A DNA stretch of 64,000 nt from positions 3,520,001 to 3,584,000 of the forward strand of contig OZ244070.1 in assembly GCA_965215605.1 (NCBI GenBank), given 5' to 3'. Each line of letters opens with the position of its first letter. Position 1 is the stretch's first letter. Source of the stretch: an uncultured Candidatus Binatia bacterium. Lineage in GTDB: Bacteria > Desulfobacterota > Binatia > UBA9968 > JAJDTQ01. Under the pieces are notes generated by a model. That model was given only the letters and a program-made list of their open reading frames with translations. It was not told where the DNA came from and ran no database searches. The translations under genes were made by a program, and so were the position numbers. Below are positions 10,012-17,416 of the stretch, piece after piece.

Positions 10012-11115
10012 ATGGCGAACCAGACCGCGATTCCCTGCACCATGATGCGCGGCGGCACCTCGCGGGGGCCGTATTTCCTGGCCGGCGAGTTGCCGGCGGA
10101 CGACGCCACGCGCGACCAGGTCCTGCTGGCGGCCATGGGGTCCCCCGACCAGCGTCAGATCGACGGCGTGGGCGGCGCCACCACCCTTACCAGCAAGGTC
10201 GCCATCGTCTCGCCGTCGGACCATCCCTGGGCGGACGTGGACTACCTGTTCGCCCAGGTCTCGGTGGACCGGGCTTTCGTTGACTACAGCCCCACATGCG
10301 GCAATATGCTGGCCGGCGTCGGCCCCTTCGCCATCGACCGCGGACTGGTGTCCCCGATCGACCCCAGGACGGTGGTGAATATCCGCAACGTCAACACCGA
10401 CTCCTTGATCGAGGCGGTGTTGGAGACCCCCGACGGCCATGTCGAATATGACGGCGATACTGCCATCGACGGGGTCCCCGGCACCGCGGCGCCGATCCTG
10501 CTCAACTTCATGGAGGTCATCGGCTCCAAGACCAGGGCATTGTTTCCCACCGGGCAACGGCAGGAGGTCATCGAGGGCGTCGAGGTGAGTTGCGTGGATG
10601 TCGCCATGCCCATGGTGTTGGCAACCGCCGAGAGCATGGGCGTCCGGGGTGACGAGAGCAAGGCCGAGCTGGACGCCAACCGCGCGCTGCTCGAGAAGCT
10701 GGAGGCGGTCCGAGTGGTGGCCGGCGAGAAGATGGGGCTGGGTGACGTCCGAGGCAAGGTCATCCCCAAGTTCGGCATCCTCTCCCGCCCGCGCCGGGGC
10801 GGGGCGCTGACCTCCCGCTACTTCGTGCCCACGGACTGTCATGCGGCCCACGCGGTCTCCGGCGCCGTCTGCGTTGGAAGTTGCGCCTTGGTCCCAGGCA
10901 CCGTCGCGGACGGCATCGCGGAAACCGGCGGCGGGTTCTCCGAGACGGTGGAGATCGAGCACCCCAGCGGCTCCATCACGGTGGCGTTCGAGTTGAGTGG
11001 AGTGGGCGACGACTTCGCGCTCGAGAAGGCGGGGGTGGTGCGCACCGCCCGAAAGCTGTTCCAGGGCCAGATCTACGTTCCTGGCAGGGTCTGGAGTACG
11101 CGGCCATGCATGTGA
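10012..11115 (+). CDS. PrpF/FldA family isomerase (4-oxalomesaconate tautomerase-like)
   Basis: MRGGTSRGPYF, QIDGVGGATTLTSKVAIV, CGNMLAGV, EHPSG and RTARKLF motifs. Confidence 0.9.
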   Translation: MANQTAIPCTMMRGGTSRGPYFLAGELPADDATRDQVLLAAMGSPDQRQIDGVGGATTLTSKVAIVSPSDHPWADVDYLFAQVSVDRAFVDYSPTCGNMLAGVGPFAIDRGLVSPIDPRTVVNIRNVNTDSLIEAVLETPDGHVEYDGDTAIDGVPGTAAPILLNFMEVIGSKTRALFPTGQRQEVIEGVEVSCVDVAMPMVLATAESMGVRGDESKAELDANRALLEKLEAVRVVAGEKMGLGDVRGKVIPKFGILSRPRRGGALTSRYFVPTDCHAAHAVSGAVCVGSCALVPGTVADGIAETGGGFSETVEIEHPSGSITVAFELSGVGDDFALEKAGVVRTARKLFQGQIYVPGRVWSTRPCM

Positions 11116-12280
11116 CGTTTGGCTGGAATGTTCGCGTTGCGGGGTACGTCATGAACGTGCGAAGCTCCACAACCTTTGCCGGGAATGCGGCCGGCCGCTG
11201 CTGGTCCGTTACGATCTGGCCCGGGCCGGCGAGACGTTGACCCGTGACAGTCTCCGGGGACGGGCGGCGAGCCTGTGGCGGTATCGGGAAGTGCTGCCCG
11301 TGGTCGACGACGCAGCCATCACGACCCTGGGGGAGGGATGGACGCCGCTGGTCCACGCCGGGCGGCTGGGCCGGCGGTTCGGCATGCCGCGCCTCCACCT
11401 CAAGGACGAGGGCCTCAATCCCACCGGTTCGTTCAAGGCCCGCGGCATGACCGCGGCCGTGTCCATGGCGAAGCAACTGGGGGCGGAGCGCCTGGCGGTG
11501 CCCTCGGCCGGAAACGCCTCCGGAGCGCTGGCCGCGTACGCGGCCAAGGCGGGTCTGGAGGCTCATATCTACATGCCCCGGGACGCGTCGCGGGTCAGCG
11601 TCGTGGAGTGCATGCAGTACGGCGCCCACGTCGTGCTGGTGGACGGCTTCATCAACGATTGCGGCCGTATCATCGGGGAGAAGAAGGAAAGCGAAGGGTG
11701 GTTCGACGTCTCGACCCTGAAGGAGCCCTATAGGGTCGAGGGCAAGAAGACCATGGCCTACGAGCTTGCCGAACAGATGGACTGGACCCTGCCGGACGCG
11801 GTGCTGTACCCGACCGGTGGCGGCACGGGTCTGATCGGCATGTGGAAGGCTTTCGACGAGATGGAAGAGTTGGGATGGATCGATTCCAGGCGCCCGCGCA
11901 TGATCTCGGTCCAGGCCGAAGGCTGCGCCCCCATCGTCAACGCGTTCACGGCCGGGGCGGACACGGCTGAGGCGGTCACCCAACCGGCCACCCTCGCCGC
12001 AGGACTGCGCGTGCCCGTGGCCATCGGCGATTTCATGATCCTGGATATTCTGCGAAGGAGCGGCGGCACCGCCGTGAGCGTGCCCGACGCCGAGATCCTG
12101 GAAAGCGTCCGGGAGCTTGGTTCCGCCGAAGGGATCTTCGCGGCGCCGGAGGCCGCCGCGTGCGTGGCGGCTTTGCCCAGGCTCCTGGAACGCGGCGATG
12201 TGGACAGGGAGGAGCGGGTGGTGCTGTTGATCACCGGATCCGGGCTCAAGTACCCGCACCTGTGGAGCGACCTTCCTTGA
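11106..12280 (+). CDS. thrC: Threonine synthase (PLP fold II) with an apparent frameshift just after the start
   Basis: LECSRCG...CRECG zinc ribbon, TLGEGWTPL, NPTGSFKARG, SAGNA and YPTGGG. The SD-preceded ATG at 11106 is out of frame with the body, with the shift at about 11118-11122. Confidence 0.8.
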
Positions 12281-13005
12281 AGACCTTCGTGGGAACCAGC
12301 GGCTACGCCTACAAGCCGTGGAAGGGCAAGTTCTATCCCGCCGGCATGCCGGACAAGGAGATGCTGCCGTTCTATGCCGGCCGGTTCGACACGGTGGAGA
12401 TCAACCACACCTTCTACCGCATGCCCGCGGACCCGGTGCTGGCGCGCTGGCGCGAGCAGGTGCCGGAGGGCTTTTCCTTTTCCGTCAAGGCGTCCCGGGC
12501 CATCACGCACCACGCCCGGCTCAAGCAGGCGGACGATGCCGTGGCCTTCCTGTTCCAGCGGCTGGAGTCCCTGGGAGACAAGCTCGGCCCCGTGCTGTTC
12601 CAGTTGCCGCCCAACCTGCGGCTGGACCTGCCGCGGCTTCGGGACTTCCTCGGCACGCTGCCGGGGGAACAGCGGGTGGCGGTGGAATTTCGTCATCCAT
12701 CGTGGTTTGACGAGGATGTGTTCGACACCCTCCGGGAGCACGACGCGGCGCTCTGCATCGCCGACGGCGAGCTGGATGGCGAGACGCCGTTGGTGTCCAC
12801 CGCCAGTTGGGGCTATCTGCGGCTGCGGGCGGTGGACTATACCGACGACGCCATCGGAGCCTGGGCGGAACGGGTGAGCGGGCAGACGTGGACCCATGGC
12901 TACGTGTTCTTCAAGCATGAAGACGAGGCCACCGGTCCGAGGCTGGCGGCCCGGTTCATGGAGCTCGTGAAAGAGGCGGGAGCCGACGGTGAGCCGGAGG
13001 CATGA
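12277..13005 (+). CDS. DUF72 family protein
   Basis: VGTSGYAY, TVEINHTFYRMP, LGPVLFQLPP, EFRHPSW and VFFKHE. The TTG start overlaps the upstream TGA. Confidence 0.88.
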   Translation: MKTFVGTSGYAYKPWKGKFYPAGMPDKEMLPFYAGRFDTVEINHTFYRMPADPVLARWREQVPEGFSFSVKASRAITHHARLKQADDAVAFLFQRLESLGDKLGPVLFQLPPNLRLDLPRLRDFLGTLPGEQRVAVEFRHPSWFDEDVFDTLREHDAALCIADGELDGETPLVSTASWGYLRLRAVDYTDDAIGAWAERVSGQTWTHGYVFFKHEDEATGPRLAARFMELVKEAGADGEPEA

Positions 13006-13026: not shown

Positions 13027-13842
13027 TTGTCAACCATCGAGAAATGGCCCGACGGGGCCCGGGTCGCGGTCCTCGTGACCCCCATGTTCGAGACCTGGTC
13101 CGTGGGAAACGCGCCGTCGTATTCGCCCATGTCGTCGCCGCTGAAGCCCGGTGTGGTGGACCGGCTGGGGGTGTCGTGGTCGGAATACGGCGGCCGCACG
13201 GGGGTCTGGCGGTTCATGAAGATCTTCCGTGAATTCGAGGTCCCGGCCACCGTGTGCACCAGCGGCCGCTCGGTGGAACTGTTCCCGGACGCGGTAAAGG
13301 CCCTGCACGAAAACGGCCACGAACTCGCCGGCCACTCCTACAGCCAGGATACTTTCCTCACCGACCTCTCTGCGGACGAGGAGAAGGAAGTGATCGGTCG
13401 CTGCTTCGACCTCATCCAGGGCGTGACGGGAGTGCGGCCCGTCGGCTGGCTCAGCCCCAGGGCCACGCCCACCGAGCATACCGCGGGGTTTCTGGCGGAG
13501 GCCGGCTGCGTCTGGCACGGCGACTACAACGACACGGACGTACCCTACAGGATGACGACGGGGTCCGGGGATGTCGTGGCCATCCCCCACAGCGACTTCG
13601 CGGACAACCGGGTGCTTCGGGGCAGCCCGCGCGACTTCCTCAACGTGTACAAGGACACCTTCGACTTCCTCTACCGGTCGGACGCGCCGGAAATGATCAA
13701 TCTGACCGTACACGCCCACTTCGGCGGCCGGCCGATGATGTCGGCCATGCTGACCGAGATCCTCCGGTACATGAAAGGGTTCTCGAAAGTCTGGTTCGCG
13801 CGCCACGACGAAGTGGCGCGGTGGGTGCTGGAGCAGGGGTAG
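13027..13842 (+). CDS. Polysaccharide deacetylase family protein (PuuE/allantoinase-like)
   Basis: EYGGRTGVWR, GHELAGHSY, RPVGWLSP, HAHFGGRP and VWFA. GGAGGAG SD. Confidence 0.85.
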   Translation: MSTIEKWPDGARVAVLVTPMFETWSVGNAPSYSPMSSPLKPGVVDRLGVSWSEYGGRTGVWRFMKIFREFEVPATVCTSGRSVELFPDAVKALHENGHELAGHSYSQDTFLTDLSADEEKEVIGRCFDLIQGVTGVRPVGWLSPRATPTEHTAGFLAEAGCVWHGDYNDTDVPYRMTTGSGDVVAIPHSDFADNRVLRGSPRDFLNVYKDTFDFLYRSDAPEMINLTVHAHFGGRPMMSAMLTEILRYMKGFSKVWFARHDEVARWVLEQG

Positions 13843-13848
13843 GGGGCG

Positions 13849-14418
13849 TTACCCCAGCGGCACGTCGACGCCGTTGAGGGTGAGCTCCGGGACCACCTCC
13901 ACCGGGTTCCGCAAGGTGTTGGTGGTGTAGCAGGACCGTTCCAGGGCTTCGGTGAACTCGACGATGCGTTCCCGGCTGTCGGGGCTTTGCAGATCCAGCC
14001 GGTAGACCAGACGGGTGCAGGCCGACGGCACGTCCGACAACCCGAACTTGCCCTTCTGGTCGAATTCCCCCCGTACCGTCATCTCCGCGCGCTCGATCCG
14101 GATGTCCATGAATGACGCTAACTGCGTCACCTGGCTGAGCATTCAGAAGCCGATGGAGGCGACGAAGTACTGGAGCGGTGCGGCCCCCTTGCCGCTGCCT
14201 CCCCGTGACGGCGGTTCGTCGCAGAAGATGGTATAGCCTTCGGATGTCCTGGCCTCCTTCAGGTGGTCGTTGACCAGTTTGATCTGCGCTTCGTGCACCG
14301 TCACCGCCTTGGAGGGGTCCTCCCGGTAGGCCTTTTGGCGGCGCTCGAAGAGGGCCTTGTGGTGGCTGTAGTCGATGGAGCAGCAGCCCGGGTCGTCGGT
14401 TTCGTTCGTGATGACCAT
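13849..14418 (-). CDS. OsmC/Ohr family protein, predicted selenoprotein (TGA 14143-14145 = Sec92), 189 aa
   Basis: Track ORFs 14143-14571 and 13849-14142 are the same frame separated by one TGA: DEPPSRGGSGKGAAPLQYFVASIGF-U-MLSQ...LERSCYTTNTL. SECIS-like hairpin downstream. ATG 14418 has a GGAGG SD. Confidence 0.88.
14106..14134 (-). promoter_or_regulatory. Bacterial SECIS element of the OsmC-like gene
   Basis: mRNA reads UGA + 11 nt + GGUGACGC-AGUUA-GCGUCAUU, extendable by CCA/UGG. G is the second loop position. Confidence 0.8.
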
Positions 14419-14635
14419 ATTCCCTCCGTTTGGATACATCAAAGCCGTACTCATTCGGCCACGAGCCTTTCTACCACAGAGGGCGAAAGATGCCGAAAGA
14501 ACACACCCGTGCAGCGGTGGTGACCTGGGCGGGAAGACGGCGGCGGCGCTTAAAATCGGACCGGCTTTCAACTAACTTGTGGCTTTGGCGCGAGAGATGG
14601 TTCGAACCGCGCCCGCACATGCAAACAGGTGATCC

Positions 14636-15985
14636 ATGTCGCAGGACCTGAGAAGTTATCTGGACCTCGTGGAATCGAAGGACGAGCTGGTGAGGATATC
14701 GGCTCCCGTGGATCCGCTCCACGAGGTGACCGCCCTGGTGGCCAAGCTGGCCCGGGAACGGCGCCGCCGGCCGGTACTCCTGTTGGAGAACGTCAAGGGC
14801 AGCGCGCTGCCGGTGGTGACCAACCTCCATGCCAGCCGGCGGCGCATGGCGCTGGCCATGAACGCCGAGCCTCGGGATCTCCAGCGGGCGTTCCTGAAGG
14901 CGATGGAGCGTCCGGTGGCGCCGGTGGTGGTGGACACCGGGCCGGTCAAGGAGGTGGTGCGAACCGGCGCGGACGTCGATCTGCTGGCGCTGCCGCAGAT
15001 CGTCCACCACGGCGCGGACGCCGGCCCCTATATCACCGCGGCCATCTCGTTCGCCAGGGATCCGGAGGACGGTACCTGGAACTGTGCGTACAATCGCCTG
15101 ATGATCATGGGGAAGGACCGGACCTCCATCCACATCACCGCGTCGAAGCACCTGTGGGAGTTCTACCGGAAGGCGGAAGCCCGGGGCGAGGCGCTGCCGG
15201 TGGCGTTCGCCGTGGGGGTTCATCCCGCCATCGGCCTGGGGGCCCTGGCCATTGGCTCCATCGACGAGGACGAGCGCGCCATCATGGGCGCGGTCCTGGG
15301 AGAGCCGCTGGAGCTGGTGCGGTGCGAGACCTCGGACCTGCTGGTGCCGGCCCATGCCGAGATCATCCTGGAGGGCGAAATTCTTCCCGGCGAAAGGACG
15401 CCGGAGGGTCCCTTCAGCGAGTTCACCGGCTACAGCCTGGGCCAGCGCCAGCGCGAGGTGGTGCGCTACAATGCCGTGACCATGCGGGAAGGCGCCCTCT
15501 TCCACGACATCGCCGTGGCCCAGGTGGACCACCTGTTGCTGTCCACCATCCCCATGGAGGCGAACCTCTACCGGGCGGTGCGCGCCATCGTCCCCTCGGT
15601 GACGGCGGCGCGCGTGCCCGCGCCCTACAGCTGCTACGTCGCCATTAATCAGCGGGTTCCGGGGCAGGCCAAGAACGCCATTCTGGCGGTGCTGGGCGCC
15701 GACATGTACATCAAGCGCGTGGTGGTGGTGGACCACGACGTCAACATCTTCGATGACCGGGAGGTGGCCTGGGCGTTGGGCACCCGGTGTCAGGCGGACC
15801 GCGACATCACGGTGATTTCCAACACCCGGGGCTCGGACCTCGACCCCTCCACGGATTCCGACGGCTACACCGCCAAGTGGGGCGTCGACGCCACCGCCAA
15901 GCCTTCCCTGGATAAGTACACGCCGCGCAACCGCATCCCTCGGGACGTCATGGACCGCATCGACCTGGATGCGCTGGGGCTGTAG
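14636..15985 (+). CDS. UbiD family prFMN-dependent (de)carboxylase
   Basis: DAGPYIT, YNRLM, AEIILEGEI, EGPFSEFTGY and VVVVDHDVNIFD. Confidence 0.93.
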   Translation: MSQDLRSYLDLVESKDELVRISAPVDPLHEVTALVAKLARERRRRPVLLLENVKGSALPVVTNLHASRRRMALAMNAEPRDLQRAFLKAMERPVAPVVVDTGPVKEVVRTGADVDLLALPQIVHHGADAGPYITAAISFARDPEDGTWNCAYNRLMIMGKDRTSIHITASKHLWEFYRKAEARGEALPVAFAVGVHPAIGLGALAIGSIDEDERAIMGAVLGEPLELVRCETSDLLVPAHAEIILEGEILPGERTPEGPFSEFTGYSLGQRQREVVRYNAVTMREGALFHDIAVAQVDHLLLSTIPMEANLYRAVRAIVPSVTAARVPAPYSCYVAINQRVPGQAKNAILAVLGADMYIKRVVVVDHDVNIFDDREVAWALGTRCQADRDITVISNTRGSDLDPSTDSDGYTAKWGVDATAKPSLDKYTPRNRIPRDVMDRIDLDALGL

Positions 15986-17416
15986 TTGACCTCCCCGGCG
16001 CCGAATTTCGTCTGCCTCCTCGAAGAGACCGCAGCGCGTTTTCCGGAAAAACCCGCGTTGCTCTGTCCCGACGCGACCGTGACCTACGGCGGGCTGCAAC
16101 AACGCGCGGCCGGATTTGCGCGGGAGTTGGCGGAGGGCAACGTCGGGCCGGGAGACCGGGTCGCGATGGTGTTGCCCAACCACTGGACTTTCGTGGTGGC
16201 GATGCTGGGTATCTGGAAGCTCGGCGCCACCGCCGTGCCGCTGAGCCCGCTGCTGAAGGCGGAGGAGCGAAAGGCCATCCTCGCGGACGTGGACCCGGCC
16301 GTGGTGGTCGAACGCGTGGAGCCGCGGGAGGGCGTCTGGGACACGGCGACGGAGGCCGGCGCGCCGGCCCACTTCGGCTACAGTTCCGGCAGCACCGGCC
16401 GGCCCAAGGGCGCGGTGTTCAGCCACTCGGCGCTGACCTTCGCAAACCGCTCCTGGGCGGACATGATGGCGGTGACGTCCGCGGACGTGGTGCTGTCGGT
16501 GCTGCCGCTGCCCCATTCCTTCGGGCTCAACGGCTCGCTCCTGGCTCCGCTGATCAGGGGCGCTCAGGTGGTGCTCCCCGGAGGGTTCGTACCCGACCAG
16601 GTCCTTGCCGCCATGGAGGAGCGCCGCGTGACCCTCTTCCTGGGTGTGGCCACCATGTTCCGGCGGCTGTTGAGCGCGCCGGAGTTTGCCGGCGCGGACC
16701 TGTCTTCGCTGCGCCTGTCGGTGTCCGGCGCCGCGCCATGTCCGTGGGACTTGGCGTTGGAATGGCGCCGTCGCACCGGCCATCGCATCCTCCGGGGTTA
16801 CGGCATGACCGAGTTGTTTCGGCCCATCTCGTATCTGGCCTCGGAGGCGGAGGACCGGCCGGAATGCATCGGGCGCGCGGTTCCGGGCGTCGACCTCCGG
16901 GTGGGGGCGGACGAGGGCATAGGGTCCGGAGAGGGGGACGTGGGGGAGCTCTGGATCAGGACGCCGGCTGCGCTGCAAGGCTATTGGAACGATCCCGCCC
17001 CGGTGCTGGAGGACGGTTGGTTCCGGACCGGCGATCTCGCCCGGGTCTCCGCCGACGGGTTCGTGGAGATCACCGGGCGCCTCAGGGAACGCATCCTGCG
17101 GGGTGGCTATTCGGTCTTCCCCCAGGAAGTCGAGGCGGTGCTGGCCGAGCACCCGGAAGTTGCCGAGGCCGCGGTGGTGGGGGTGCCCCACCCGGAGCTG
17201 GGCGAGGAGGTGGCGGCTTTCGTGGTGGCGAAGGTGGGTACGGTCCCGGAAACCGGCAGCCTCGCCGCCTACTGCAAGGAGCGGCTCGCCCGCTTCAAGT
17301 ACCCCCGACACATTCGTGTCGTGCCCGAGTTGCCAAAGGGGCCGACCGGGAAGGTGCTGAAGCCGGAGCTACTGGAGGGGTGGCGCACGGAGAGAGGGAA
17401 GGGGGAGGAGCGGTAG
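15986..17416 (+). CDS. Acyl/aryl-CoA ligase (AMP-binding family)
   Basis: YSSGSTGRPKG, GYGMTE, WFRTGDL and LPKGPTGKVLK. The TTG start directly abuts the ubiD stop. Confidence 0.9.
   Translation: MTSPAPNFVCLLEETAARFPEKPALLCPDATVTYGGLQQRAAGFARELAEGNVGPGDRVAMVLPNHWTFVVAMLGIWKLGATAVPLSPLLKAEERKAILADVDPAVVVERVEPREGVWDTATEAGAPAHFGYSSGSTGRPKGAVFSHSALTFANRSWADMMAVTSADVVLSVLPLPHSFGLNGSLLAPLIRGAQVVLPGGFVPDQVLAAMEERRVTLFLGVATMFRRLLSAPEFAGADLSSLRLSVSGAAPCPWDLALEWRRRTGHRILRGYGMTELFRPISYLASEAEDRPECIGRAVPGVDLRVGADEGIGSGEGDVGELWIRTPAALQGYWNDPAPVLEDGWFRTGDLARVSADGFVEITGRLRERILRGGYSVFPQEVEAVLAEHPEVAEAAVVGVPHPELGEEVAAFVVAKVGTVPETGSLAAYCKERLARFKYPRHIRVVPELPKGPTGKVLKPELLEGWRTERGKGEER

Follow-up and report, generated by a model that had tools for sequence, protein, structure and literature searches.

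Anatomy of a gene interrupted by a UGA codon

The stretch of DNA analyzed here (the window) comprises 64,000 nucleotides of contig OZ244070.1, positions 3,520,001 to 3,584,000, from assembly GCA_965215605.1 of an uncultured Candidatus Binatia bacterium; the genome is a 4.06-Mb draft of 8 contigs with an estimated contamination of 5.74%. On the minus strand of the window, at 13849..14418, lies an OsmC-related gene with one in-frame TGA. The list of open reading frames (ORFs) gives it as two pieces in the same frame, 14143..14571(-) and 13849..14142(-), which the first-pass annotation, made from the sequence alone and silent on the strand, had taken for a single frame broken by one TGA at 14143-14145, with a second Cys retained in LERSCYTTNTL. 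Translation with TGA read as selenocysteine (Sec, U) agreed with the ORF list on both counts: U92 stands in the context ASIGF-U-MLSQ, and the retained cysteine is C163. Judged by sequence comparison, this is almost certainly a single, truly Sec-decoded gene; the reading as a whole, namely that it encodes a 189-residue selenoprotein of the NF041052 family with redox chemistry of the OsmC/Ohr type, is very probable.

Features of the gene, in window positions:

13849..14418, minus strand: complete coding sequence of the predicted OsmC-related selenoprotein, 189 residues plus the stop TAA (13851-13849), translated with TGA as U
14418-14416, minus strand: start ATG, at which the orthologs also begin
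14423..14427, minus strand: GGAGG resembling a Shine-Dalgarno sequence, 4 nt before the ATG, read from the sequence
14380..14385, minus strand: codons of Cys12-Cys13 in the motif CCSIDYxHHK, outside the NF041052 model
14143..14145, minus strand: UGA codon, predicted Sec at residue 92, the sole in-frame TGA of the gene
14111..14131, minus strand: putative selenocysteine insertion sequence (SECIS) hairpin with an 8-bp stem and the 5-nt loop AGUUA (14123-14119), starting 11 nt after the UGA (spacer 14142-14132)
13930..13932, minus strand: codon of Cys163, the second conserved (resolving-type) cysteine according to the alignment columns

Ordinary gene callers cut this gene in two at the UGA, and in public protein collections it is present only as two fragments. 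A word-indexed protein search with the read-through protein returned only 3 fragments of 105 to 110 amino acids (aa), which were uninformative on the Sec/Cys column. A scan of 13600-14800 for promoter and terminator consensus sequences found no promoter-like match and one terminator-like match, inside the gene on the other strand; this was no more than in shuffled sequences and is likewise uninformative.

Conservation of the UGA and of the two cysteine columns

We searched 40 related genomes and the window genome, 41 in total, in six frames with stops read through. OsmC-like matches were found in all 41; among the 96 listed, 78 had an in-frame TGA and 18 had none. A full-length ortholog, 84 to 98% identical and with exactly one TGA each time, was present in 19 of the 24 same-genus genomes sampled, and two genomes of a sister family contained TGA-bearing orthologs at 64 to 67% identity. 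A read-through alignment was made of 34 genes: 20 from the genus (the window gene included), the 2 sister-family orthologs, and 12 more distant ones. The column of U92 held TGA in 30 of these relatives and Cys in the other 4 (in the context GF-C-M), and the column of C163 held Cys in all 34.

HMMER, run exhaustively against 1.84 billion representatives, gave 826 proteins at E values up to 0.001. Of these, 152 were stored, and the 119 with lengths of 140 to 240 aa were taken as full-length homologs. Cysteine occupied the U92 column in 112 and the C163 column in 114 of them. Many shorter matches stopped at residue 91 or started at residue 93; since they border residue 92, they point to Sec genes cut by gene callers. 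The near-invariant residues of the subfamily turned out to be D67, E68, G74, P81, C/U92, and C163. The earlier proposal that the TGA marks the first OsmC/Ohr cysteine, and that an alignment would place Cys opposite it, is thus upheld by the stop-less relatives and the homologs alike, and the TGA itself is conserved in the same column among the relatives.

Selection on the two halves and coverage by RNA libraries

Substitution patterns among 22 orthologs place both halves of the gene under purifying selection. The median ratio of nonsynonymous to synonymous substitution rates (dN/dS) was 0.12 upstream of the UGA (80 codons, 201 pairs with dS > 0.05) and 0.08 downstream of it in the same frame (94 codons, 223 pairs). 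These values bear on the possibility that a Cys codon has mutated to a stop, leaving a pseudogene, or that the TGA arose by faulty assembly or sequencing. A TGA is one base away from TGC or TGT, and the draft state of the genome and its estimated contamination speak for such an origin. It is excluded by conservation: the same TGA recurs in 19 other same-genus genomes and in more distant relatives, the low dN/dS persists beyond it, and the RNA-library contigs of relatives that span the site have no listed difference at it.

The RNA-library contigs that span the UGA come from three studies (X17 record 2, X19 record 9, and X21 records 16 and 17) and are 85 to 99% alike to the window. Their strand and level are not shown and they may derive from DNA; moreover, 118 of their differences are unlisted, so that retention of the TGA in them is not proven. 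Three of the four carry an A-to-G change at 14119, as do the relatives. The contigs leave parts of the stretch uncovered, for example 14451-14524, from which we draw nothing.

A conserved hairpin directly downstream of the UGA

The hairpin had been described in the first-pass annotation as lying 11 nt past the UGA with the loop AGUUA, and we found it exactly so. Its two lowest stem pairs are G-U, and it appears in the minimum-free-energy fold. The accompanying remark that it is built from rare codons agrees with usage in five neighboring genes, in which none of 180 Leu codons is TTA and a single one of 99 Ser codons is TCA. Of the 20 same-genus orthologs, 19 have G (TTG) at 14119, the last loop position; A (TTA) is peculiar to the window copy.

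To compare the element among relatives, we aligned the 48 nt from the UGA in the 30 Sec forms, which required no gaps and pairs stem columns 15-23 with columns 27-35. The stem cells were paired in 87.8% of cases, compared with 22 to 47% when the partners were slid by 1 to 3 columns. In five of the nine stem pairs both sides have changed; at 18/32, for instance, G-C is replaced by U-A, and at 21/29 by C-G. All six core pairs were formed in 29 of the 30 Sec forms, and loop columns 24-25 read G-U in every one of them. In the four Cys forms, in contrast, the number of core pairs retained was 1, 5, 3, and 4 (out of six), and one of these forms had GT in the loop. In this comparison of sequences the full hairpin element tracks the UGA. 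The 12 codons following the UGA varied in third position at 2 of 12 among the 20 same-genus orthologs, the lowest value of 162 windows along the gene (median, 9 of 12), which constitutes independent evidence for constraint at the RNA level. The earlier identification of a SECIS element just 3' of the UGA with a G early in its apical loop is therefore borne out by the comparative alignment.

Selenocysteine machinery and other Sec genes

The genome was searched for the genes needed for Sec insertion, a check named in the first-pass annotation, and all of them were present. The relevant loci, in genome positions, are as follows:

G000:C1:1984272-1988572, all on one strand: selA-selB-selD cluster (loci L001, L004, and L005), all above curated cut-offs
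C1:259405-259495: tRNA-Sec with anticodon TCA, 73.1 bits (gathering score, 47)
G000:C1:1207296-1207736, minus strand: shorter OsmC-related selenoprotein paralog (locus L052, 576-1052), about 159 residues with one TGA

The profile scores were 580 bits for selA, 380 bits for selB, and 374 bits for selD. SelD is itself a selenoprotein, its in-frame TGA giving U17 in the context AAG-U-AAK, and 25 nt after that UGA there is an 8-pair hairpin with the loop GUC. The shorter paralog matches NF041052 at 184.8 bits, better than the long form in the window, to which it is 29% identical; it carries the motif UxxT, and its hairpin, UUUCCCG-GUA-CGGGGAA, lies at the same distance from the UGA as in the long form. 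Within the genus, with the window genome included in both counts, the shorter paralog was found in 25 of 25 genomes and the long form in 20 of 25. The genome thus has at least three Sec genes (the long OsmC-related form, the shorter OsmC-like paralog, and selD), which, together with the wide retention in the genus, suggests a marked reliance on selenium for redox defense.

Reading of TGA as Trp or Gly under an alternative genetic code was also considered. It was rejected because TGA is an ordinary stop in two of five neighboring genes; TGA also ends several of the orthologs, and the homologous column holds Cys.

A different possibility is a split gene, in which translation would stop at the UGA and restart at the adjacent AUG (TGAATG), yielding chains of 91 and 97 residues that jointly form the OsmC-like fold. 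The codon after the TGA is indeed ATG in 24 of the 30 Sec forms, and gene callers give the halves as separate proteins. In the remaining six, however, the next codon is CTC or CTG, and no Shine-Dalgarno-like sequence precedes the ATG. In no case is the interrupting codon TAA or TAG; it is a TGA each time and falls at the Cys column each time, which counts against a split gene, as do the single-chain nature of the Cys-form homologs and the predicted position of the break, midway through the modeled central helix formed by residues 81-103. The conserved hairpin, with its loop GU, and the complete set of Sec genes also count against it. We consider stop and restart very unlikely.

Some points weigh against Sec decoding, beyond the limits of the RNA-library contigs given above. 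The energy of the hairpin is unexceptional for DNA of 66% G+C (z = -0.21; 87 of 200 shuffled sequences fold as well or better), and the judgment that it is more than chance therefore comes from the comparative evidence and not from thermodynamics. An Rfam scan of 13800-14500 gave no match at E values up to 10. The covariation score of the stem was 0.329 against 0.121 for shuffled alignments, with none of 500 shuffles as high, but the rows are relatives of one another, so that the tally of shuffles cannot be taken as a probability. The encoded peptide may account for some of the stem complementarity, as one Cys form keeps five of the six core pairs. Sec at residue 92 is a prediction from comparison and gene anatomy. 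Three findings named in advance as fatal to a selenoprotein, namely missing machinery, a TGA not conserved in relatives, and a non-Cys residue in homologs at that column, were each looked for, and none was seen.

Sec decoding, as it would follow from this anatomy, can be set out in three steps. The ribosome would reach UGA-92; SelB with Sec-tRNA(Sec) would bind the hairpin 11 nt downstream, with GU in its small apical loop; and selenocysteine would be inserted in place of termination. The genome contains every gene that this requires.

Family, fold, and probable activity

The read-through protein matched the Pfam family OsmC (E = 3.7e-14) and the NCBIfam model NF041052, "OsmC-related (seleno)protein," the latter with 135.7 bits (E = 1.1e-39; curated cut-off, 95 bits); residues 43-183 covered positions 5-144 of the 144 in that profile. 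The gene is thus a member of an already catalogued, curated family. An AlphaFold2 single-chain model built from a 112-row alignment had the OsmC/Ohr fold, with a mean predicted local distance difference test score (pLDDT) of 93.6 and a predicted template modeling score (pTM) of 0.85. In it, U92 lies within the long central helix 81-103 and C163 between helices 149-162 and 164-169. The best Foldseek matches were 2opl, 2onf, and 1lql, followed by Ohr and OsmC structures, with E values from 1.7e-9 to 1e-6. The top match, 2opl (GSU2788 of Geobacter sulfurreducens), was aligned over 183 columns that include the N-terminal helix, and it also led a profile search of the PDB (7.5e-28), ahead of 3cje (1.2e-24). 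Together, the Foldseek matches and the two near-invariant Cys columns indicate that both the fold and the two catalytic Cys positions of the Ohr/OsmC thiol peroxidases are present.

Homology to these peroxidases allows a catalytic cycle to be proposed. Sec92, in place of the first conserved Cys, would attack an oxidized substrate, most likely a hydroperoxide, and become a selenenic acid; Cys163, as the resolving residue, would turn the acid into a selenenylsulfide, and an external dithiol donor would then reduce the latter. The scheme is modeled on Ohr and OsmC, which, according to PMC8945050, are homodimers with two essential cysteines that form an intramolecular disulfide and are reduced by lipoyl proteins. 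From its family, the window protein is assumed to be a homodimer too. There is about an even chance that the substrate is a hydroperoxide.

The protein could also be a real selenoprotein that is not a hydroperoxide reductase, that is, a redox protein of the YhfA type, a group which we take to be COG1765, with Sec92 and Cys163 acting on another substrate. Disulfides or persulfides, in proteins or in small molecules, are candidates, as are metals and metalloids, and an N-terminal CC...HH motif might take part. We regard this as a serious possibility that falls somewhat short of an even chance. Against it, the fold is that of Ohr/OsmC, and the only near-invariant cysteines of the family are the two that define Ohr/OsmC thiol peroxidase chemistry; in addition, redox enzymes that contain Sec most often have it at a peroxidatic position. 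Against a peroxidase function stand several observations. No Ohr or OsmC equivalog model was matched above its cut-off: among models at E values up to 0.1, the best was NF052637 (Ohr) with 18.6 bits against 240, and no OsmC equivalog model was listed. The closest solved structures, 2opl and 3cje, are structural-genomics entries without known activity. The clade has conserved C12, C13, C66, C133, and His19/His20 that fall outside the Ohr/OsmC mechanism. PMC8945050 describes a third, YhfA-type subgroup that keeps both cysteines but has neither the catalytic Arg nor the Glu and has yet to be characterized biochemically, and in PMC1088965, the 2005 survey, the OsmC-like Sec forms are placed in COG1765, "predicted redox protein." Of the earlier designation of the gene as an OsmC/Ohr-family peroxidase, the fold and the two Cys positions stand; no equivalog model is matched, and the activity is inferred.

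The N-terminal arm and additional cysteines

Approximately 42 N-terminal residues fall outside the NF041052 domain and carry the motif CCSIDYxHHK, in agreement with the extra N-terminal segment seen at first. The motif is present in 22 of the 34 aligned relatives, which are the entire ortholog clade (L021-L042, 22 of 22), and the CC is replaced by a two-residue gap in L043-L050 and L053. The extension itself is common to many homologs, Cys forms included, and CCxIDY/W without HH occurs in four distant Cys-form proteins. The CC...HH motif was also found in N-terminal fragments from at least seven further 50%-identity clusters; these fragments reach the Sec position or break off shortly before it. 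In the structural model, the motif block has moderate confidence (pLDDT 83).

The long form with CCSIDYxHHK may represent a distinct subfamily, and its vicinal Cys and His-His residues could form a flexible arm acting as a third redox center or a metal site. We put this forward as a speculative and rather unlikely proposal built on motif conservation. Such an arm might, for example, take up electrons from a reductant outside the protein and pass them to the Sec92-Cys163 selenenylsulfide, perhaps across a dimer. If so, the protein would be a self-contained three-center Sec/Cys relay, unlike a plain two-Cys OsmC-type enzyme. The CC...HH arm is the only element of the gene that may be new.

Two other cysteines were noted. 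Cys66 (codon 14221-14223, in a CDEP motif) is Cys in 33 of the 34 relatives but in only 27 of the 119 database homologs. Cys133 (codon 14020-14022, in PSAC) is shared by the 26 closest Sec forms but not by the 4 Cys forms.

Genomic neighborhood

The OsmC-related gene is alone on its strand (monocistronic), and the genes next to it are as follows:

13027-13842, plus strand: polysaccharide-deacetylase-family gene, convergent with the OsmC-related gene, their stops being 6 nt apart
14636-15985, plus strand: UbiD-family decarboxylase gene, divergent from the OsmC-related gene
15986-17416, plus strand: AMP-dependent ligase gene, next after the UbiD-family gene

Among 19 related loci from named genome records, the UbiD neighbor was present in 17 and the deacetylase neighbor in 16, one of these 16 being a 69%-identical ortholog. 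The titles of these records name metagenome-assembled genomes of Candidatus Binatia, Thermodesulfobacteriota, Syntrophobacterales, or Deltaproteobacteria. This suggests ordinary synteny among relatives, with no functional link implied. The context had initially been called unusual, which for the neighborhood did not hold, as it consists only of a monocistronic gene flanked by conserved neighbors. At a locus of a more distant genome (L072, 1617-2420), a deacetylase-family gene 69% identical to 13027-13842 adjoins a 69%-identical OsmC-related ortholog, and the UbiD neighbor is not there.

Some further observations concern the surrounding DNA. The listed ORFs of a gene for a pyridoxal phosphate-dependent enzyme (10997-12280) and of a DUF72 gene (12160-13005) overlap by 121 nt (12160-12280); the DUF72 Pfam match begins at residue 59, so the true start of that gene is probably further downstream. 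Antisense ORFs of 427, 386, and 946 aa opposite real genes between 10976 and 17311 are the usual artifact of high G+C content and not genes. Runs of DNA labeled as sponge or viral metagenome contain small shares of the stretch (0.19 to 0.28), from which no conclusion on habitat was drawn.

Comparison with known systems

OsmC-like selenoproteins are not new, as the first-pass annotation had already stated. They were reported in 2005 by Zhang, Fomenko, and Gladyshev from Sargasso Sea data, and that paper (PMC1088965) gives three sequences, the motif UxxT, and a SECIS figure; the family also appears in a table of a 2026 review (PMC13188914) and underlies the curated NCBI model NF041052. In the literature searched, we found only bioinformatic surveys and unrelated papers and no biochemical characterization of any OsmC-like selenoprotein, nor any paper on the UxxS/CCSIDYxHHK variant; on selenoproteins in this lineage, the search turned up only a paper about methane cycling in sponges. 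Because no characterized member was found, a well-conserved gene whose SECIS is clean and which has relatives with Cys in nature would be a convenient model for comparing the benefit of Sec with that of Cys in the OsmC fold. And since the gene is present in public collections only as two fragments, surveys based on protein calls under-count selenoproteins in this uncultured lineage.

The window gene shares with NF041052 and the 2005 family a score above the cut-off, Sec at the first Cys, and the retained second Cys, and with the 2005 family also a SECIS directly 3' of the UGA with a G in a small apical loop. It differs from the published family in having UxxS (U-M-L-S) instead of UxxT, and from NF041052 in the N-terminal addition with its clade-specific motif. 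In 2opl and 3cje, the first Cys occupies the same column as U92, but both are Cys proteins with no assigned function; the sequence identity to 2opl is 18%, and 2opl has Ser at the position of Cys163. The Ohr and OsmC structures (PDB 1n2f, 1usp, 6eb4, and 1vla) share the fold (Foldseek E values of 5e-8 to 2e-7) and the two conserved Cys positions, whereas the window protein lacks an equivalog match, has Sec for the first Cys, and bears the N-terminal extension. Where the Ohr NPE motif has Pro-Glu, the window protein presumably has Pro81-Leu82, which would put Leu82 at the Glu position; D67 and E68 are near-invariant in this subfamily instead.

The SECIS element of Escherichia coli fdhF has an 11-nt spacing and G and U in its loop. 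The window element resembles it in its 11-nt spacer, the hairpin that follows, and the G-U at the start of the apical loop, and the selD hairpin of the same genome (stem and loop GUC) also resembles the apical part of fdhF. The window stem, however, is unrelated in sequence and has no evident bulged U in its 8 bp, and binding by SelB is a prediction. Taken together, the gene is a further member of a known selenoprotein family, found in uncultured Candidatus Binatia relatives, and its recognition is a correction of annotation and not a new kind of system.

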